Positions 1 through 52,230 of a DNA stretch of 64,000 nucleotides are shown piece by piece. The notes beneath the pieces were generated by a model. The model worked only from the letters and a program-made list of their open reading frames with translations. It searched no databases and was not told the origin of the DNA. The first letter of the stretch is position 1. Every line of letters begins with the position of its first letter. This DNA is from Nemertoderma westbladi (taxonomy: Eukaryota; Animalia; Xenacoelomorpha). The stretch is from assembly GCA_032718475.1 (NCBI GenBank), contig JAUCBJ010001497.1, positions 385 through 64,384 of the forward strand, written 5' to 3'. A program made the translations under genes and the position numbers.

Positions 1-3000
1 ACCGAAAACGATCTCGTTAGGTGATCGTCCATCAGCTTTCGGGGTATTGCGGAGTTCCAGCAGTCCATCCTGGAACTCTTCAGAATTGGTATCGTGGCGG
101 GGAACCTTTGATGCGAGGTGTTTAAGGGATTTAACTGCAGCTTCTGCATGTCCATTACTGGACGGGAAGTATGGGGTGCTGGGTCTCCATTCAACTCCCC
201 ATCGCTTCAGGAATGCACGGAATGAGGCTGCATTGAATTGAGGTCCACCATCTGACCTCAAGAGAACAGGGACTCCTAGGTCTACAAACCACTGTCTTAA
301 AATATATGCAACTTCCTTTGAAGTTGGGTCATACCGCCACTCATGAATATCTGGGTAGCCAGAAAGTCGGTCGACGTAAACAAGGTAGTGTTTACTACCA
401 ATTGCAAAAAGGTCTGTAGATACAGATTGGAATGGATGGTTTGGAATTTCATCAGATTGTAGTGTCTCTTTCGCGAGACTGGGTCGCAATTCCTGGCAAG
501 CAAGGCATTTATTAATCATAAGTTCAATATCACGTGATATTCCAGGCCAGTATACAGTCTGGCGGGCGCGCTGCTTGGTACGGGTGATACCCTGATGGGA
601 TGTATGCAGTCGACGTAATATTTCGGGCTGTTGGGATTGTGGGATAATAATCCTATCCCGGTAAAGGATTAGTCCATCGGCTAATGAAAGTTCACCGCGA
701 ATCGATGTGAACTTTTTTAAAAATGGAGGTAGCTCTCGGATATCCTTAAAATCATTTTGGATTAATTCGATGAGTTTCTTGTAGTTCGAATCATCCTGTG
801 CTGCTACACGCAGTTCCTCGAGGATGGGATCATTGATTCGGGGTGTTGTTTCCTCGATTTTAGCACACGCAGCAGCGATATTAAAGTTACAGCCATCGAA
901 ATCGTCCTCCTCTGGGGAAGGGTCGTCAACTGGTGAACGGCTAAGGCAGTCGGCTATTCTATGGGATTTTCCTTTTTGCCATTCGACTTTGAATTGGTAA
1001 CAGGATTGCAGATCACTTTTGATCCGCTGAATTTTTGTGTTTTCGACCTGATCAACTGAGTAGTTATTAAATAGTGTGACTAAAGGCCTGTGATCTGTCA
1101 CAACTGTGAATAAAGGAAGGCCCAATAAGTATATGCGGCATTTCTGGATTGCATATCGGATCGCGCAGCACTCCAGTTCTATTGTGGCATAGCGCGTTTC
1201 TGCATCTGACAGGAAACGGCTACCGCAACATATTAAATTCCAATGATCTCCATGCCGCTGTAGAAGATCGAAACCGAAACCATGCAGACGGCTAGCGTCT
1301 GTTTCCAGCTTGGTCTCTGCCTGTAGATTAAATGGTGCAAGGATTGGCGGTTGCACCAATGCATTTTTCACCTTCAGGAATGCATCTTGGTGGTTGGGGG
1401 TCCACATGAAAGTATTACGGGTGCGCAATAAGTCCCGGAGAGGTGCTGCATATGTGCTTATTTCGCTGGAAAAATGGCCTAACTGGTTCACAAGGCCCAT
1501 AAAGCTGCGAAGATCCGGAATATTGAGAGGGGTTGGATAGCCAGCTATTGCTTTGAGTTTATTAGGGTCTGCTTCGGTTCCTGCACCAGACACAATAAAC
1601 CCGGCGAATTTTACACAGGGTTGGGCGAATTGCCATTTTGAGGGATGTAATGTAATCCCTGCCTCGCGGCATTTCTGAAGGATAGTCCGGACCCGCTGGA
1701 TGTGGTCTGTGAGGTTAGTGTCCTGGATGAGTATATCATCCACCACTTTATGTACCTGTGGCACCCCTTGGAGTGCCATGTCTCCACGGTAGTTATAGCT
1801 ATCGCCTGTAGATATGAACCCCATTGGAGCCCGTCGATATCTAAAACGTCCCCATGGAGTGATGAAAGTCGTATAATCCCGAGAGGATTCCGCAAGTTCC
1901 ACCTGCCAGTACCCCTTCCTGGCGTCTAGAACTGTAAATATTTGCGCCCCCGGTGTTCGATCAGATACTACGTCATATGGAGTGCGGGAATTGTGAGTAG
2001 TTCGGTGGACCTGGGAATTCAATTTAGTGAGGTCCACAGTCATGCGAATTTCTCCTGGGGAATTCGGCTTTGGGCAAACCACAATCGGGTGGCACCATAA
2101 AGTAGGGCGATCCCCTACCCGTTCTATAATTCCCTGCGTCTCCATGGCGATGATTTCCAATCGGGCTTTCTCCCTGTAGGGGAAAGGTATAGACCGCGCT
2201 GCATGGATACAAAATGGTTGGGCATTGTCCCTCAACTCAATCTCCATGGGAGGCCCGGTCATTGTCCGTAATGGACCACCACTAGCAAAAACATCCTGGA
2301 ATTCCACCAGAAGTTCTTGTTTAATATTTTTTACATTGGTATCATTATGATCTACAGGTACAGCTGAGATTAAATTTGGGATATTATTTATTGGTTTTGG
2401 AATAACAGTATATTCTATAGGTACAGCTGATATTATGTTCGGGATTTTATTTGGGGATTTTGAGGGATTACAAGGGATTACATTTATAGAAGTTTCTCTC
2501 CACCCACTTACCAGATGAAGAGGGGTGGGAAATTCTGGGTGAACAATCCCAAGCCCCTTACAGGCAGGGAGAGATAAGTATATATCTTTGAAAAGGTCTG
2601 GACAAAGATAAATCCAATCCCCATGGGTTTCATTCCCAACCGATAATTCCATATAAATCATCCCTTCACAAGATATAGTTCCGCCATTGGCATTTAACAA
2701 TGGGCAGTCTGGGGGCACAATTTTACCCCCTTCACCCTCAGGCAGGGCCCATTCGTATAGAATGTCTGAGCCCGCAGCAATAACTTGAGCCCCCGTGTCA
2801 GCAATACACGTAGTGTTTCCAACGTATTCCCCCTCCAAATAAAAATCAATGGGAACCAGCGGTTTCCGGTGTGTGGCTGTGTACCCATGGATATCCGCTA
2901 TGCGGATTACACTAGTGTTTTGCGGACGTTTTTTGTATTTTGCCGCGACGCATTGTGATGCGTAATGTCCTTTTATATTACAATTACGGCAAGTTTTATC

Positions 3001-3703
3001 GGCCGCTTTGCAATAATCACCGCCTCTATGTGGAAAATTCCCACCACAGTATATACATTCACCCTTTGCTTTGGCTTTAGCCATTGCATCCCGAATTCGA
3101 GCGGCTGAAGGAGATCGGGTTTGGATTTCTTCCTTAGAACGTTTATAACCGCTCTTATATCGCGACTTCGACTTACTCCTTCCTTGTCGGTTGTCTGTGG
3201 TACCGGTAGGTTGCTGTATTCCGCTAATACGGCGTTGTTTAAGGAGTTGAGTGTCACGAATTGCAATCTCGCGGGATCGACAAAAGTCGACAGTTTCTTG
3301 GCGATTCATTGGCGGACGTTTAGAGAATAATTCTTCCCGGGTTTCATCGTCCCGAATTCCTTGGATCAGAAGGGTGTTTAACCAGTCGTCCCTGTTCATT
3401 GATTCAAGCTCGGCGTCCTCGGCCATCTCGCAGAGGCGAACGTAATAATCGTCAAAATTCTGACCCTGTTCTTGCTGTAGTTGAACCAGTTTATGGCGAT
3501 CCACAACTACATTCTGCTCGGCGCGAAGATAAACCCGTATATCTTCCAGGACTTCCGACGCCGATTTTTCCGTTTCGGTGGATATTCCGAGTCTATAACG
3601 GATATGGTTGAGGAATTCTGGGGAACAGTAAGAGAAAAACACAGATATCTGTTCTTCCCGTGGTTTTTCGTCGAGTCTAACGGCACGAACGTAGTTACGC
3701 CAC
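1..3703 (-). mobile_element. Degenerate Ty3/Gypsy (Mag-like) LTR retrotransposon internal region, gag-pol, truncated by window start
   Basis: Minus-strand translation gives two gag CCHC knuckles (CIYCGGNFPH..C, CRNCNIKGHYASQC, ~2945-3060), protease IADTGAQ (~2785-2805), RNase H ETDASRLHGFG / ETRYATIELE / TDHRPLV (~1075-1310) and integrase SDGGPQF / SPYFPSSNGHAEAAVK (~130-255). The order PR-RT-RH-IN is Gypsy. Many stops and frameshifts. PBS-like TGGCGTAACT begins at 3702 (minus). Confidence 0.9.
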
Positions 3704-4348
3704 TGTACTTCCCAGCGTTTAAAACGCTGATAATTAAAGTCTATATCTGAAAGAAGAATAATCTATTGCAAGACCAGATGTTTATTATAATTTTCTTAGG
3801 CGATTTGACAATGGTTTACATGATAACGAATGATAATTTAAATAATTTAAACTTTGTGGCAGCCCAACGTTGGTATACAGTATAACTCAACATAGGATTC
3901 AATGGTGGGGTTAGTCATGCTACGTCTAATAAGAGCACAAACAGCCACAGATTATTTAGGGATTGAGCTAGGACCAAACTGGCCCACTTTATTTTCTTGA
4001 AAGGGTAATTTATGTTTTGGACCCCGTTCGCATCTTTATATTTCATTCTATCATGCTATTGTATGGCAAAAATAATACAAATGTACTGTATATTGTATTA
4101 TTGTTCCTATTGTATTGTATATTTCATTTGCTGTAGTACAATCTATTCATCTCGCGTCCCTATCTGATTGATTTGTGTCAAATTAAATTGCCTTTGGCAA
4201 CATTATTTGATACAAATCGATTGATTAAACAATTAATTAATTGTTTAATCGACCAATTAATTAATTGTTTAATTAATTAATGACCTACTTAACACCCAAG
4301 GTGTGAAGTTGGTCTAACTGTCGCCGAGGATGGCAAACCATTACTACT
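3704..4348 (-). mobile_element. Putative 5' LTR of the Gypsy element
   Basis: Lies directly upstream of gag/PBS, ends ...GTACA before TGGCG and interrupts a CR1-like RT ORF at 4348. 3748-4348 recurs inverted at 51247-52230. It starts AGT rather than TG, so boundaries are uncertain. Confidence 0.6.
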
Positions 4349-4919
4349 TGTAAGTATAGTGAAATTGGTAGAATGTTCAACTTTATTAGTCTTTCTTTAT
4401 ATCTGTTTTCATCATTTCCTAAAATCCATATTGAAGATCTGCGCTGAATGGATTCTACTCGATGGGCATCTGTCTTGTTAGCAAACCAGCAGGGTGATCC
4501 ATAACATATAACAGGCAAAACCATGGACTTATTTATATTATATTTATATTTTATTTATATTTTATTCTAAGTTTAGTTTAGATTGGATTGGTAATTGAGC
4601 TGAACAGTTTCTTTTGATGAGGAAGAGTGTACGATTTGCTTTGCTGCATTTGTCATTGATGTGAGCCGTCCATGCAGGACATTGCTTTCGCCGTGAGGAC
4701 CAGCCAGTGCATAATCTTGTACTTTGGCAGCCTCATGGAGTGAATAAGCATGGTGGACAGCCCATGACTTTCTTGAGACGCATCTTAAAGGACACTGGCC
4801 TTAAAGATGCGGATGATCTAGCAAATGTCATGGGTGATAGGGAGTTGTGGCGGTGCAATTTTGTTGACAAGCCGGCACAGCATTCTTAAAAATGCAGCTG
4901 CAATGCAGCATGCCGATCC

Positions 4920-6406: not shown

Positions 6407-6852
6407 AAACTTAGTTCCAATCGCACATTTTCAAATGCGAACTTAGTTCCAATTGAAACGAATTTAGTTCCAAAATAAATTTTACAAAGCGAATTTAGTT
6501 CCAATCGAGGCGAACTTAGTTCCAATCCCAGAATATAAAAACGAACTTAGTTCCAATGGATGCGAATTTAGTTCCAATGCATGCGAATTTAGTTCCAATG
6601 CATGCGAATTTAGTTCCAATGCATGCGAATTTAGTTCCAATGAAAGCGAATTTAGTTCCAATGCATGCGAATTTAGTTCCAATGCATGCGAATTTAGTTC
6701 CAATGCATGCGAATTTAGTTCCAATGAAAGCGAATTTAGTTCCAATGCAAGCGAATTTAGTTCCAATGGAAGCGAATTTAGTTCCAATGGGTACGAACTT
6801 AGTTCCAATGTTTCAATCATGGGGTTAGCCACGTAGTAGGCGAAGCCTATTG
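6407..6852 (-). repeat. 21-bp satellite (reverse orientation) with a unique terminal segment ending in a hairpin
   Basis: Unit GCGAATTTAGTTCCAATGCAT. The flank 6811-6845 is the reverse complement of 8465-8500. Hairpin TAGTAGGC-GAA-GCCTATTG at 6834-6852. Confidence 0.85.
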
Positions 6853-8053: not shown

Positions 8054-8613
8054 AGGGTCAACAATAATTGCAATAAATTGTAAAATCCTTCCGTCATATT
8101 TAAAAAACGAAGTATTATTAATGAATTAAATGTATAATTACACATTTTGAAATATATATTAATCACGAGTATACTGATACTGACTGACTGAGTCTGTAGT
8201 ATTATATACTCAAGTCATGCACATTGTGCCATTTTCACAGCAAATACAATATTTACCAGTTGTTTGGGTTAGGAGGTTGGGCGTTGTTTTTTACAATGAA
8301 TATGATTTTAAATGATTAAATATAAATGAATTTAATTGAATTGTTTGGGTTAAGGGGTTGGGCGTAGTTTGGGGTAAGATTGTTTTGGTTAGGAGGTTGG
8401 GCGTTTTGGGTTAGTTATTTACAATTATTATTTAATCATCCACCTAATAGTGTCCTTAAACATTCTTCGCCAACTACGTGGCTCGCCCCACACCTGAAAC
8501 ATTGGAACTAAATTCGCTTCCATTGGAACTAAATTCGCTTGCATTGGAACTAAATTCGCATCAATTGGAACTAAATTCGCATCCATTGGAACTAAATTCG
8601 CTTGCATTGGAAC

Positions 8614-8750
8614 TAATTATAAATGAATTGTTGTGGGGTGGGTGACGGCGAATAAATATATATGTTATAGTACATTATGATAATGCTCTCCATAGCGAAA
8701 AATATCAACCGCCCCTATTGGGGCTCGAACCCGGTACCTAGGTTTCAAAC
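8614..8750 (-). mobile_element. Inverted partial copy of the 370-bp hammerhead repeat unit
   Basis: Reverse complement reads GTTTGAAACCTAGGTACCGGGTTCGAGCCCC...CATTTATAATTA, matching the unit from the ribozyme GAAA onward. Confidence 0.9.
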
Positions 8751-8975
8751 GGTTTATTCGCCGTCACCCACCCCACAACAATTCATTTATAATTAATTAA
8801 CACGTATGGCCGGCATACGGGGTTACAGTGGTTTCTACAACACTGTATAATAGTTATTCTTTGAGGCATGGTTGCCATTTCTGGCAGAGCACGGGAATAA
8901 CGTTGTACTTTACTATGAGTGACGTAAAAAGGCCTAAAAATGATACCCCACTCCATAGCGAATAAATCTTCTACC

Positions 8976-9081
8976 GCCCTGGTAGCTCAGTGGTCTTAGG
9001 ACACACACTCGGCTGATGATAACCGGAAGTTTGAAACCTAGGTACCGGGTTCGAGCCCCAATAGGGGCGGTTGATATTTTT
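8976..9081 (+). promoter_or_regulatory. tRNA-like Pol III type-2 cassette (A box, B box, T-run terminator); repeated at 9346, 9716, 10086 and 10456
   Basis: GCCCTGG-TAGCTCAGTGG (A box) ... GGTTCGAGCCC (B box) ... AGGGGCG, followed by GTTGATATTTTTT. D, T and acceptor stems are imperfect and there is no canonical 7-nt anticodon loop. Confidence 0.7.
9007..9050 (+). ncRNA. Type I hammerhead ribozyme, copy 1
   Basis: ACUCGG (stem I) - CUGAUGA - UAAC/CGGAA/GUUU (stem II) - GAAA - CCUAGG (palindromic stem III) - UA, then predicted cleavage after 9044 - CCGGGU (stem I'). Confidence 0.82.
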
Positions 9082-9376
9082 CGCTATGGAGAGCATTATC
9101 ATAATGTACTATAACATATATATTTATTCGCCGTCACCCACCCCACAACAATTCATTTATAATTAATTAACACGCATGGCCGGCATACGGGGTTACAGTG
9201 GTTTCTACAACACTGTATAATAGTTATTCTTTGAGGCATGGTTGCCATTTCTGGCAGAGCACGGGAATAACGTTGTACTTTACTATGAGTGACGTAAAAA
9301 GGCCTAAAAATGATACCCCACTCCATAGCGAATAAATCTTCTACCGCCCTGGTAGCTCAGTGGTCTTAGGACACAC

Positions 9377-9420
9377 ACTCGGCTGATGATAACCGGAAGT
9401 TTGAAACCTAGGTACCGGGT
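9377..9420 (+). ncRNA. Type I hammerhead ribozyme, copy 2
   Basis: Identical to copy 1. Confidence 0.82.
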
Positions 9421-9746
9421 TCGAGCCCCAATAGGGGCGGTTGATATTTTTCGCTATGGAGAGCATTATCATAATGTACTATAACATATATATTTATTCG
9501 CCGTCACCCACCCCACAACAATTCATTTATAATTAATTAACACGCATGGCCGGCATACGGGGTTACAGTGGTTTCTACAACACTGTATAATAGTTATTCT
9601 TTGAGGCATGGTTGCCATTTCTGGCAGAGCACGGGAATAACGTTGTACTTTACTATGAGTGACGTAAAAAGGCCTAAAAATGATACCCCACTCCATAGCG
9701 AATAAATCTTCTACCGCCCTGGTAGCTCAGTGGTCTTAGGACACAC

Positions 9747-9790
9747 ACTCGGCTGATGATAACCGGAAGTTTGAAACCTAGGTACCGGGT
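9747..9790 (+). ncRNA. Type I hammerhead ribozyme, copy 3
   Basis: Identical to copy 1. Confidence 0.82.
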
Positions 9791-10116
9791 TCGAGCCCCA
9801 ATAGGGGCGGTTGATATTTTTCGCTATGGAGAGCATTATCATAATGTACTATAACATATATATTTATTCGCCGTCACCCACCCCACAACAATTCATTTAT
9901 AATTAATTAACACGCATGGCCGGCATACGGGGTTACAGTGGTTTCTACAACACTGTATAATAGTTATTCTTTGAGGCATGGTTGCCATTTCTGGCAGAGC
10001 ACGGGAATAACGTTGTACTTTACTATGAGTGACGTAAAAAGGCCTAAAAATGATACCCCACTCCATAGCGAATAAATCTTCTACCGCCCTGGTAGCTCAG
10101 TGGTCTTAGGACACAC

Positions 10117-10160
10117 ACTCGGCTGATGATAACCGGAAGTTTGAAACCTAGGTACCGGGT
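10117..10160 (+). ncRNA. Type I hammerhead ribozyme, copy 4
   Basis: Identical to copy 1. Confidence 0.82.
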
Positions 10161-10486
10161 TCGAGCCCCAATAGGGGCGGTTGATATTTTTCGCTATGGA
10201 GAGCATTATCATAATGTACTATAACATATATATTTATTCGCCGTCACCCACCCCACAACAATTCATTTATAATTAATTAACACGCATGGCCGGCATACGG
10301 GGTTACAGTGGTTTCTACAACACTGTATAATAGTTATTCTTTGAGGCATGGTTGTCATTTCTGGCAGAGCACGGGAATAACGATGTACTTTACTATGAGT
10401 GACGTAAAAAGGCCTAAAAATGATACCCCACTCCACAGCGAATAAATCTTCTACCGCCCTGGTAGCTCAGTGGTCTTAGGACACAC

Positions 10487-10531
10487 ACTCGGCTGATGAT
10501 AACCGGAAGTTTGAAAACCTAGGTACCGGGT
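10487..10531 (+). ncRNA. Type I hammerhead ribozyme, copy 5 (GAAAA variant)
   Basis: As copy 1 but with an extra A in the GAAA core (mutation or homopolymer error). Confidence 0.7.
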
Positions 10532-11390
10532 TCGAGCCCCAATAGGGGCGGTTGATATTTTTCGCTATGGAGAGCATTATCATAATGTACTATAACATAT
10601 ATATGCATTGGAACTAAGTTCGCATCCATTGGAACTAAATTTGCATCAATTGGAACTAAATTCGCATGCATTGGAACTAAATTCGTTTTAGTTTTTCTCT
10701 AATTATTGGAACCAAGTTCAAATTGGAACTAAATTCGCCAAAATTGGAACTAAATTCGTTTCCATTGGAAATAAATTCGCTTGCATTGGAACTAAGTTCG
10801 CATCCATTGGAACTAAATTCGCTTCCATTGGAACTAAATTCGCTTCCATTGGAACTAAATTCGCTTGCATTGGAACTAAGTTCGCATCCATTGGAACTAA
10901 ATTCGCATCCATTGGAACTAAATTCGCTTGCATTGGAACTAAGTTCGCATCCATTGGAACTAAATTCGCATCAATTGGAACTAAATTCGCATCCATTGGA
11001 ACTAAATTCGCATCAATTGGAACTAAATTCGCATGCATTGGAACTAAATTCGTTTTCGTTTTTCTCTAATTATTGGAACAAAGTTCAAATTGGAACTAAA
11101 TTCGCCAAAATTGGAACTAAATTCGTTTCCATTGGAACTAAATTCGCTTGCATTGGAACTAAGTTCGCATCCATTGGAACTAAATTTGCTTCCATTGGAA
11201 CTAAATTCGCTTCCATTGGAACTAAATTCGCTTGCATTGGAACTAAGTTCGCATCCATTGGAACTAAATTCGCATCCATTGGAACTAAATTCGCTTGCAT
11301 TGGAACTAAGTTCGCATCCATTGGAACTAAATTCGCATCTGTACTATCTGATACTGGCGTACCACTGACTGACATACCAGCTACCTGCAA

Positions 11391-15007: not shown

Positions 15008-15840
15008 CATGCTAGCCCGCTCAGGCCACACCATAAGTAGTATATTGTCCCACTCGTGCTCCTAAGTAATCAATTAATACCAATGGTGATGGGTAATAAT
15101 TGCAATTCAATTATATTAATGTGCTAATAAATATATAATTAATATAATTGGTTACCTCGTTGGAGGTGTAAAGTGAAAAAAAAAATAAAAAAATAAAATT
15201 CGCATCAATTGGAACTAAATTCGTTTTCGTTTTTCTCTAATTATTGGAACCAAGTTCAAATTGGAACTAAATTCGCCAAAATTGGAACTAAATTCGCTTG
15301 CATTGGAACTAAATTCGCTTCCATTGGAACTAAATTCGCTTGCATTGGAACTAAGTTCGCATCCATTGGAACTAAATTCGTTTCCATTGGAACTAAATTC
15401 GCTTGCATTGGAACTAAGTTCGCATTCATTGGAACTAAATTCGCATCCATTGGAACTAAATTCGCTTGCATTGGAACTAAGTTCGCATCCATTGGAACTA
15501 AATTCGCATCAATTGGAACTAAATTCGCATCCATTGGAACTAAATTCGCATCAATTGGAACTAAATTCGCATGCATTGGAACTAAATTCGTTTTCGTTTT
15601 TCTCTAATTATTGGAACAAAGTTCAAATTGGAACTAAATTCGCCAAAATTGGAACTAAATTCGTTTCCATTGGAACTAAATTCGTTTTCATTGGAACTAA
15701 ATTCGCATGAGGCTTAAGTTGGAACTAAGTACGGGGAATCTTACAACATTGGTATATACAGTAGAAAGTGGAGCTTACTCAGAAGGTTTTACAACTTCCT
15801 AGAAATTATTTTTCATATATTTATATATTTACTTAAACCA

Positions 15841-46886: not shown

Positions 46887-48149
46887 TCAAATCGAACTGA
46901 TACCATATTCATCCTCCATCATCTTCATATATGCCGCTACAGCTGCCTTGCGGTACACACCCATAGCCATACTAGAGTCTTTGTGCTTAGCTGTCAGTTC
47001 CATTAACATTCGATCAATTCTATTTTCATCATCACACAAATATATAAAACACTTTACTTTATTCGCGTTTGTTTTAATTGAATTTTTATCTAAGCAGTCG
47101 GAATTTATTCGCTTTTTAGTTTCTCTAAATACTTTTAATTCTCTCTCCATTCTCTCAAAACCAAATATTTCTATTTTATCCCAAAGTGTTTTATTGAAGT
47201 GTTTGTAAAGTTTCCAATCTCCGATATTTATATTTCTGAGTTTTTCTGTATCAAAAATATCCAGTTTTTGATTTTGCACACCTTTACTCCTATAAACGAC
47301 GTCTTCAAATTCCCAACACATTAAATCTTTCAACAAAATCATCGATTCGTCAAAATATTCCAATAAAATCACCAAATCAAATTCCTCATCAATCTCTTTT
47401 ATAATATCATCATAATCACTATCATTGGGTGAATTTACATTATAGCCGAATTCGTATAACAAAGGATTTAAAAACGACCTATAATTGAGCATAGTGCCAT
47501 TTGGATTACTAATGAAATATTCATAAATATCTTTTGTAGTATTGAGTGCTAACTCATTTGCGTCACGAAAATTTGAATATGGAGCATAATAAGTCATGTA
47601 GGATTTGATGACATTTGAAGGGTCACGAATTCCAACAATATACATGGTATCTGGTGGCATCAACTTTTTTACATCAATGTTAAATTTTCCGTGTAGAAAT
47701 GAAACATTAGGATGTTGTGTGAACTGGTTTAAATGTTCGCCCCACCAGTAACTCCATTGCCGACCTCTACATTTCGCAAATGATTCTTCATCGGACAGAG
47801 CGGGTGTTAGATTGTGATTAATAGCGTGATTAATAATCACAGAAACTGTGGTACGGGACCCAGTTCGGTGGGTCTTCAAGTAAAAAACATTCATTTTCGT
47901 TTTGCAACTTCCATTCAATTGTGTCACATTTGTTTCATTCTCTTCCACAAAGTTTTGAGCCGTAGTATACATTTGCATTCCTACTGAACTATAAGATATA
48001 TTGTTGTCCAATTGTTTCACATACTTGTACACAAGTATAAGCATTGCTATAAGTATAAGCATAAAAGTGGATAAAGTTAATTTTCGAAAAGTCACATTAT
48101 TGAGGTACATGTTTCGTTCCATACACATAAATTCGAGCAATGGAATCAA
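46887..48149 (-). CDS. Galactose-3-O-sulfotransferase (Gal3ST/CST family), type II membrane protein, single coding exon
   Basis: 420 aa. N-terminal TM segment; FYLKTHRTGSRT (5'-PSB), IRDP (3'-PB), FDLVILLEYFDESMILLKDLMCW and DWKLYKHFNKTLW family motifs. Confidence 0.92.
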   Translation of the reverse strand: MIPLLEFMCMERNMYLNNVTFRKLTLSTFMLILIAMLILVYKYVKQLDNNISYSSVGMQMYTTAQNFVEENETNVTQLNGSCKTKMNVFYLKTHRTGSRTTVSVIINHAINHNLTPALSDEESFAKCRGRQWSYWWGEHLNQFTQHPNVSFLHGKFNIDVKKLMPPDTMYIVGIRDPSNVIKSYMTYYAPYSNFRDANELALNTTKDIYEYFISNPNGTMLNYRSFLNPLLYEFGYNVNSPNDSDYDDIIKEIDEEFDLVILLEYFDESMILLKDLMCWEFEDVVYRSKGVQNQKLDIFDTEKLRNINIGDWKLYKHFNKTLWDKIEIFGFERMERELKVFRETKKRINSDCLDKNSIKTNANKVKCFIYLCDDENRIDRMLMELTAKHKDSSMAMGVYRKAAVAAYMKMMEDEYGISSI

Positions 48150-51246: not shown

Positions 51247-52230
51247 AGTAGTAATGGTTTGCCACTCTTGGCGACAATTGGACCAACTTCGCACCTTGGG
51301 TGTTAAGTAGGTCATTAATTAATTAAACAATTAATTAATTGGTCGATTAAACAATTAATTAATTGTTTAATCAATCGATTTGTATCAAATAATGTTGCCA
51401 AAGGCAATTTAATTTGATACAAATCAATCAGATAGGGACGCGAGATGAATAAATTGTACTACAGCAAATGAAATATACAATACAATAGGCACTGTACAAT
51501 ACAATATACAGTACATTTGTATTATTTTTGCCGTACAATAGAATGATAGAATGAAATATAAAGATGCGAGCGGGGCCCAAAACATAAATTACCCTTTCAA
51601 GAAAATAAAATGGACCAGTTTGGCCCTGGTTCAATCCCTCAATAATCTGCGGCCGTTTGGGCTCTTATTAGACGTAGCATGACTAACCCCACCAGTAGTA
51701 ATGGTTTGCCACTCTTGGCGACAATTGGACCAACTTCACATCTTGGGTGTTAAGTAGGTCATTAATTAATTAAACAATTAATTAATTGGTCGATTAAACA
51801 ATTAATTAATTGTTTAATCAATCGATTTGTATCAAATAATGTTGCCAAAGGCAATTTAATTTGATACAAATCAATCAGATAGGGACGCGAGATGAATAAA
51901 TTGTACTACAGCAAATGAAATATACAATACAATAGGCACTGCGCAATACAATATACAGTACATTTGTATTATTTTTGCCGTACAATAGAATGATAGAATG
52001 AAATATAAAGATGCGAGCGGGGCCCAAAACATAAATTACCCTTTCAAGAAAATAAAATGGACCAGTTTGGCCCTGGTTCAATCCCTCAATAATCTGCGGC
52101 CGTTTGGGCTCTTATTAGACGTAGCATGACTAACCCCACCATTGAATCCTATGTTGAGTTAAACCATTGTCAATTCGCCTAAGAAAATTATAATAAACAT
52201 CTGGTCTTGCAATAGATTATTCTTCTTTCA
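51247..52230 (+). mobile_element. Solo LTR-like copy of the 3748-4348 sequence with a 447-bp tandem duplication
   Basis: AGTAGTAATGGTTTGCCA starts at 51247 and 51694; the copy ends TTCTTCTTTCA at 52230. Confidence 0.75.

Follow-up and report, generated by a model that had tools for sequence, protein, structure and literature searches.

A 370-bp repeat, inserted as a head-to-tail array in the genome of Nemertoderma westbladi, carries in every unit a type I hammerhead ribozyme motif that lies between the A and B boxes of a tRNA-type RNA polymerase III (Pol III) promoter. We consider it moderately likely that this five-unit insertion is a non-LTR retrozyme copied by Penelope-like enzymes and transcribed by Pol III from its own boxes, and that its ribozyme region is a remodelled tRNA gene. 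The anatomy of the array, the order of its motifs and the abundance of the family can be read directly from the DNA. A preliminary description of the locus had proposed that the hammerhead element is mobile and that the predicted cleavage site divides its tRNA-type promoter, which the present analysis supports; it had taken the cassette to stand alone, whereas the cassette belongs to a unit of a retrozyme-type tandem array, its repetition in all five units and the inverted partial copy having been missed.

The window (the whole stretch analysed, 64,000 nucleotides) is repeat-rich DNA of animal type, with several reverse-transcriptase ORFs and many satellites. The array is hosted by a 21-bp satellite with patches at 6411-6810, 8500-8616, 10606-11339 and 15260-15708, one of them inverted, and interrupted by LINE-like fragments. 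The sole host-type gene recognised among the window ORFs scanned is an unbroken 420-codon frame (46887-48149, minus strand) matching galactose-3-O-sulfotransferase (PF06990, E 3.6e-53), and a 1254-codon open frame (1-3762, minus strand) runs past the window start. A 447-bp unit occurs as two tandem copies (51247-52141) and as an inverted copy, 94% identical, at 3880-4351; it has a B-box-like word near 51627 and long AT-rich palindromes, lacks the CTGANGA core on both strands, and is possibly another non-autonomous tandem-forming element. The parts of the 370-bp insertion are as follows.

8604-8616, plus strand: left copy of a candidate 13-bp target-site duplication, ambiguous because it lies within the 21-bp satellite
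8611-8750, minus strand: partial copy in inverted orientation, 5'-truncated, covering unit positions 9029-9168 and preceding the array
8753-10604, plus strand: 370-bp unit repeated 5.0 times head to tail, the cassette present in each (repeat search and unit comparison)
10605-10617, plus strand: right copy of the candidate 13-bp target-site duplication, a flanking repeat

The array units are 99-100% identical to each other, and the fifth has one additional A within its GAAA core (10514-10517). No ORF of at least 150 aa overlaps 8753-10604. A non-LTR retrozyme is defined by non-coding units of about 170-400 bp in tandem, every one with a type I hammerhead, and 5.0 units of 370 bp answer to this; the assignment follows from the presence in each tandem unit of a type I hammerhead of the dimer type, with a 1-bp palindromic helix III. 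The Penelope-type reading rests on the tandem array together with the inverted 5'-truncated copy and a one-sided tail, all of them features described for Penelope-like insertions (PMC8557442). The inverted arm extends to unit position 9168 and the forward array stops at the equivalent of 9122, leaving a one-sided extension of 46 nt (a tail of 30-40 bp is expected), while the 13-bp flanking repeat falls in the 21-bp satellite. The 370-bp repeat is thus very probably a Penelope-mobilised repeat of non-LTR retrozyme type, and the autonomous partner of the insertion would in all likelihood be a Penelope-type reverse transcriptase; no autonomous Penelope-like partner was found among the 19 window ORFs scanned.

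Further copies were collected by aligning contigs from sequencing runs onto one 370-bp unit. Three DNA runs, from three studies of one organism, contain 1071, 880 and 98 family contigs, the first of them (X1) being perhaps the source of the window, and a fourth run (X6), RNA by guess only, contains 3. Head-to-tail joints are present in three of the four runs, strand inversions account for 5 of the 15 joints shown, and loose contig ends cluster at 9099-9117 and 9165-9166. Given these counts, joints and clustered ends, the family is abundant and inserts in the Penelope way. In X1, 412 of the 1071 contigs are less than 95% alike. Contigs ending loosely before 9001 in one run retain an A-box-like consensus (13 contigs, agreement 0.49). 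Summed contig depth is greater over 9016-9106 than over the A box, contig depth being a quantity that cannot rank the parts of the unit.

The cassette, in the copy at 8951-9091, is composed of the following overlapping parts, all on the plus strand.

8951-8962, plus strand: 5' strand of a 12-bp outer helix, upstream of the expected Pol III start (an inferred position)
8976-8982, plus strand: equivalent of the acceptor-stem 5' strand (tRNA positions 1-7), 6/7 paired with 9062-9068
8983-8993, plus strand: Pol III A box
8992-9000, plus strand: strand predicted to pair with the helix III palindrome and cut site (9037-9047), holding the ribozyme off (P about 0.68)
9007-9012, plus strand: helix I 5' strand, equivalent to the anticodon-stem 5' strand; 9009 is C in many family contigs
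9013-9019, plus strand: hammerhead core CUGAUGA, at the anticodon-loop position (structural scan)
9020-9032, plus strand: helix II, with a U-U base, 3 bp and a 5-nt loop ending in A, in tRNA-Asn-like letters; 9025 is A in many contigs
9033-9044, plus strand: GAAA core, 1-bp helix III closing a palindrome (8-bp palindrome 9036-9043) and GUA triplet, with the predicted cut after 9044
9045-9058, plus strand: helix I 3' strand (9045-9050), unpaired U 1.7 (9051) and B box (9048-9058), overlapping
9062-9069, plus strand: equivalent of the acceptor-stem 3' strand (positions 66-72) and the discriminator position
9077-9081, plus strand: T5, candidate Pol III terminator
9080-9091, plus strand: 3' strand of the 12-bp outer helix

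Both strands were scanned structurally, and type I hammerheads turned up in this array only, with four of the five units exact. The core elements follow the type I order (CTGATGA 9013-9019, GAAA 9033-9036, GTA 9042-9044). Helix I (9007-9012 with 9045-9050) has 6 bp including one G-U, helix II has 3 bp over a U-U mismatch (9020/9032), and helix III is a single bp closing the palindrome. The G10.1-C11.1 pair, which is common though not universal in hammerheads, is replaced by this U-U mismatch. An unpaired U stands at the seventh base past the cut, and the last base of loop II is A. Metazoan type I motifs are described as having a helix I of 6 bp and a helix III of 1-2 bp with a palindromic loop, their dimers being active and their monomers cutting poorly (PMC4209133; PMC7229834). 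The axolotl motif HHR_Amex2 has a U-U helix II base, yet is reported as active (PMC7229834). An unpaired U1.7 is a known hammerhead tertiary contact with the loop II A, the U being reportedly non-essential in the constructs of the paper that describes it (PMC11875169). In one preprint, 8 of 9 retrozyme dimers assayed were without cleavage (bioRxiv 10.64898/2026.07.22.740005). The motif fits the metazoan type I hammerhead of the dimer type, and its cleavage is presumed from this class. Rfam gave no match in the whole window at gathering score, and its matches in 8900-9300 at E 10 or below included neither tRNA nor hammerhead, comprising three unrelated weak ones.

The A box (8983-8993) and B box (9048-9058) flank the hammerhead, the B box overlapping the 3' strand of helix I, just where the preliminary description had placed them. 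Also confirmed are its nested pairings GCTC/GAGC (8985-8988 with 9053-9056), ACCGCCC/GGGCGGT (8973-8979 with 9065-9071) and a perfect 12 bp (8951-8962 with 9080-9091); the T run that it had counted as T6 is T5 (9077-9081), the sole run of at least four T in the unit. When the unit was shuffled, 8 of 20,000 sequences contained A and B boxes 25-110 nt apart, and 9 of 2000 contained a perfect inverted repeat of at least 12 bp. Of the two shorter pairings, the first joins A-box to B-box letters and the 7-bp one comprises the acceptor stem plus 3 bp, so neither is independent of the likeness to tRNA. Pol III is expected to start 10-20 nt before an A box. Since the 5' strand of the 12-bp outer helix lies upstream of that point, this helix would pair only in read-through, multimeric or circular RNA, and the analysis does not support the original suggestion that it closes a monomeric Pol III transcript.

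The resemblance to tRNA extends to spacing. With 8983 read as tRNA position 8 and 9050 as position 54, the strands 8976-8982 and 9062-9068 fall in the acceptor register and pair at 6/7, the best of 21 registers. The combination of A and B boxes with at least 6/7 acceptor pairs in the tRNA register occurred in 0 of 20,000 unit shuffles. Between the boxes, 9009-9033 agrees by eye with a mammalian tRNA-Asn fragment at 19/22 positions with one 3-nt gap, through helix I, the CUG of the core and helix II, so that the tRNA-Asn likeness first noted for a shorter stretch reaches further than that. The matched fragment is printed in PMC7330628, and its 3' part is labelled AsnGTT in PMC6433273. Against a longer tRNA fragment, printed in PMC12025293, the T loop agrees at 7/7 and the acceptor 3' strand at 5/7 plus the discriminator. 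In a shuffling test that kept the core of the cassette fixed, the observed score against 104 viral-contig tRNA-Asn sequences was attained by 11 of 3000 shuffles; the Asn isotype was picked post hoc, and the resulting p of about 0.004 loses strength in line with the number of isotypes. The 5' end of the cassette fits other printed tRNA fragments equally well (17/19 and 19/24 by eye). We take these two to be of the isotypes Lys-CTT and Glu-CTC.

Detectors of whole tRNA genes did not respond to the cassette. Two calibrated tRNA covariance models, built from 63/63 non-Asn and 50/104 Asn tRNAs (71-78 nt, mostly phage-type), gave E 5.2 and 6.6-9.5 on the cassette, worse than several chance matches. 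ARAGORN reported 0 tRNA genes, and its setting with introns and a relaxed score, which called 88 'genes' in the window, was uninformative. In global alignment the cassette came closest to archaeal-type tRNA-Phe genes with inserts; the search pattern had preselected these insert-bearing genes, and we do not read the alignments as a sign of descent.

These insert-bearing genes came from pattern scans for a second family with the nested architecture; the scans covered viral, metagenome and prokaryote collections rather than animal genomes, and say little on other animals. Viral contigs gave one match, not tRNA-like by eye, and 14 more, none with GAAA after the core, again by eye. Among the 120 of about 200 metagenome matches examined, only one (L057) has a helix I of at least 4 bp and a helix II of at least 3 bp, and it lacks an A box; none of the 120 of about 130 prokaryote matches examined has both helices. 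The hammerhead of metagenome contig L057 (601-651, minus strand) is a complete type I motif, with 6 bp in helix I, 4 bp in helix II and a stable helix III, and a B-box-like word comes after it. L110, L046, L061, L020, L106, L334, L292, L274 and others are tRNA-Phe-like, largely archaeal where named, with an insert after the anticodon and CUGAAGA, GAAAC and GUC in hammerhead order. In a few of these genes the anticodon 5' strand could form 6 bp with a T-stem strand, leaving only helix II missing. Three contigs of one metagenome (L033, L050, L078) contain a type III hammerhead by eye amid tRNA-like fragments. L013, L034 and L104 share an identical minimal hammerhead-like motif with a helix II of 6-7 bp, abutting B-box-containing sequence, which may be a chance repeat junction. 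The tRNA-Phe-like genes, with their core words in hammerhead order, make a route from tRNA to hammerhead plausible and at the same time warn of convergence.

Convergence would turn the element into an ordinary non-LTR retrozyme transcribed by read-through, in which helix I and the U1.7 loop together happen to read as a B box, and a rod-shaped fold accounts for the A box and the acceptor pairing. The lack of a significant covariance-model match is in line with this, as is the known role of the unpaired U at 1.7 in tertiary contact (PMC11875169), and a review states that metazoan retrozymes seem promoterless. Unrelated archaeal-type tRNA-Phe genes with inserts have the core words in tRNA order (50/120 and 62/120 matches), which places the two motifs close in sequence space, and L057 pairs a full type I hammerhead with a B-box-like word in a setting free of an A box. 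What convergence has to explain here is an A box, a B box, an exact acceptor register, an anticodon-arm remnant and a T5, all in tRNA order and matched by none of the 20,000 shuffles, together with an Asn likeness that persists with the core held fixed (11/3000). We therefore regard it as unlikely, and prefer a scaffold inherited from a tRNA gene.

From motifs and register, and with the covariance models at chance level, the scaffold is likely tRNA-derived and tentatively Asn-like in its ribozyme part. If the match to tRNA-Asn is real, tRNA letters run through the ribozyme itself, which fits building in place better than grafting; the ribozyme first described as 'grafted' into a tRNA thus keeps its tRNA likeness and is better called interleaved with it. 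The unusual U-U at 10.1/11.1 coincides with tRNA-Asn letters, and on the same proviso these letters would be the reason why G10.1-C11.1 is absent. That an Asn-like tRNA acquired two small insertions (3 nt in the core, and 13 nt with the AAA, palindrome and cut site) and so gave the ribozyme is a tentative proposal, with chances somewhat short of even. More doubtful still, although not far behind, is the full scenario of a hammerhead born in a tRNA gene. There, the anticodon stem would have become helix I, the anticodon-loop U-turn the CUGA turn, the anticodon 3' strand and variable loop helix II, and the T arm the substrate strand and tertiary-contact U, with the two small insertions finishing the ribozyme. 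Family intermediates would range from tRNA-like and ribozyme-off (this copy) to ribozyme-favoring, and the promoter of the self-promoting, self-cutting mobile RNA would be re-formed only across the ligated cut.

Fold predictions, whose energies exclude tertiary contacts and magnesium, describe this copy as largely inactive. The 141-nt fold (8951-9091, ends chosen in the preliminary description) has z = -4.75, with 0/200 shuffles as good, and the fold of the whole unit has z -2.23, with 2/100 as good. The lowest-energy structure predicted is rod-shaped, a rod with 8992-9000 bound to the palindrome and cut site at 9037-9047 (P ~0.68). Helices I, II and III can all form, and the hammerhead makes up a small share of the structures predicted for this copy (helix I P 0.004). 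The monomer hammerhead lies 6.1 kcal/mol above the minimum; a dimer gains 5.8 kcal/mol over two monomers by forming the double hammerhead, which still lies 9.6 kcal/mol above the minimum. Helix I stays below 1% in nearly all co-transcriptional prefixes that contain 8992-9000. A cloverleaf with D, anticodon and T arms fares no better: the D-stem 3' strand is absent, the T arm has P 0.001, the cloverleaf-constrained fold is 4.4 kcal/mol above the minimum, and ARAGORN and Rfam both return 0. The inactive fold is accordingly predicted to be a rod, not a cloverleaf.

This bears on the original model of the locus, a self-contained Pol III RNA of 110-140 nt, closed by the 12-bp inverted repeat and switching between a tRNA-like fold and the hammerhead. 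One part of that model stands, namely that a CGG/CCG pairing (P about 0.63) is among those predicted for this copy, in competition with helix I. The pairing is not conserved, since 9025A breaks it in 40, 31 and 4 contigs of the three DNA runs, about half of the aligned contig depth. The tRNA-like fold on the other side of the switch fails with the cloverleaf (T arm, D-stem 3' strand and ARAGORN as above), the main blocking helix is 8992-9000 with 9037-9047, the 12-bp arm begins upstream of the expected start, and the mobile unit is 370 bp long. Such a self-contained switch is very improbable.

Variation within the family touches the balance between rod and ribozyme. The 40 rows shown of 68 variant rows leave the core, palindrome, cut site and B box unchanged. 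Within the ribozyme, the two differences met most often in these rows are 9009C (54, 60 and 7 contigs in the three runs; 55-73% of aligned depth) and 9025A (47-65% of aligned depth), depth not being copy number; both diverge from tRNA-Asn. Outside the ribozyme, an A-box change, 8992T, is found in 23, 21 and 3 contigs, and 9067C, which disrupts one acceptor pair, in 42, 30 and 11. If carried by one and the same copy, 9009C and 9025A would raise the predicted P of helix I from 0.004 to 0.88 and abolish CGG/CCG. A shift of this size was matched by 1 of 2500 random double substitutions, 25 of which exceed 0.5. Singly, 9009C and 9025A give helix I 0.014 and 0.011, and all five listed differences combined give 0.31.

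A third reading makes the element a Penelope-dependent SINE transcribed by Pol III, in which the hammerhead is a weak or dead relic and arrays arise from uncut read-through transcripts, without circles. Helices II and III are indeed weak, the inactive rod dominates in this copy, and the fifth unit has an extra A in its core. Contigs spanning the predicted cut site are present, as expected from uncut templates. A relic would be hard to reconcile with the absence of core and cut-site variants in the 40 rows shown when 412/1071 contigs of X1 are less than 95% alike, with common alleles that favor helix I, and with exactly 5.0 near-identical units, which fit rolling-circle copying. We rate this reading as quite unlikely, between the convergent origin and the self-contained switch.

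The preferred reading, a retrozyme transcribed from its own boxes, implies the following cycle. Pol III would probably start at ~8963-8976 and mostly stop at T5, giving a 110-nt RNA folded as the inactive rod. Leaky termination at T5 would allow read-through into the next unit and thus yield dimers. In these, the palindromic helices III of two hammerheads would pair and cuts would fall after 9044 and 9414, a step that precedent makes rather probable for the family and less so for this copy. The 370-nt monomer may then be circularised by an RtcB-type ligase, again by precedent, rejoining the A and B boxes across the junction; RtcB-type circularisation has been demonstrated in vitro for other retrozymes. 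As the predicted cut lies between the boxes, the B box would come at the 5' end of a linear monomer and the A box close to its 3' end, and the whole promoter could be templated only by a circle or by an uncleaved multimer. The circle, or a multimer left uncut, would serve as template for a Penelope-type reverse transcriptase, and tandem units with an inversion at their 5' end would be inserted. Even one inserted unit, if at least ~150 bp long, would contain the complete promoter, unlike in Sm-alpha.

In the open-access literature, judged mostly from listings, no ribozyme nested between A and B boxes surfaced. Two open questions are touched by this arrangement: how animal retrozymes, which according to a review seem promoterless, are transcribed, and whether genomic hammerheads arise anew or merely spread. 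With a Pol III promoter and a ribozyme on the same bases, and alleles predicted to switch the ribozyme on, both become testable with short constructs. If the tRNA origin is true, the family would let one trace how a housekeeping RNA gave rise, in nature, to a catalytic one.

Among known systems, the animal non-LTR retrozymes are close: as far as they are described in PMC7229834, PMC7761336 and bioRxiv 10.64898/2026.07.22.740005, they too consist of non-coding units of 170-400 bp in tandem, each bearing a type I hammerhead, and share the self-paired fold and the proposed Penelope mobilisation. The axolotl motifs Amex1 and Amex2 resemble ours in their weak palindromic helix III and U-U helix II base, respectively (PMC7229834). 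They differ in that animal retrozymes seem promoterless and, in the parts of these sources consulted, are described with no mention of a tRNA-derived part, whereas here A and B boxes and an acceptor register enclose the ribozyme. Penelope-like elements themselves, from the accounts in PMC8557442 and PMC4209133, show partial and full tandems, an inverted 5'-truncated copy, a one-sided tail, insertion in simple repeats and dimer-type hammerheads, as here; the 370-bp repeat differs in being non-coding and in its helix II without G10.1-C11.1, a pair described there as highly conserved. The non-autonomous LTR elements Helenus and Ajax are likewise reported to have captured a tRNA-derived A/B promoter without being LINE-dependent SINEs, as proposed here, and differ from the 370-bp repeat in their LTR mechanism and in having no ribozyme according to the same account (PMC10886601).

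Sm-alpha and Sj-alpha of Schistosoma, as presented in PMC6765202, PMC2576457 and PMC2770079, combine tRNA-related boxes A and B with a type I hammerhead and form tandems, as here, and their multimers are cleaved to unit length. Of the Sm-alpha-type features, the 370-bp unit has both boxes and departs from the order of promoter followed by hammerhead. In Sm-alpha, as a review describes it, this order leaves the promoter whole at the 3' end of the cut unit (PMC6765202), whereas the cut predicted here falls between the boxes. The B box of the 370-bp unit also forms part of helix I. The combination of promoter and hammerhead is thus already known from Sm-alpha and Sj-alpha, and a split Pol III promoter enclosing the hammerhead is, within the open-access literature covered here, a new arrangement.
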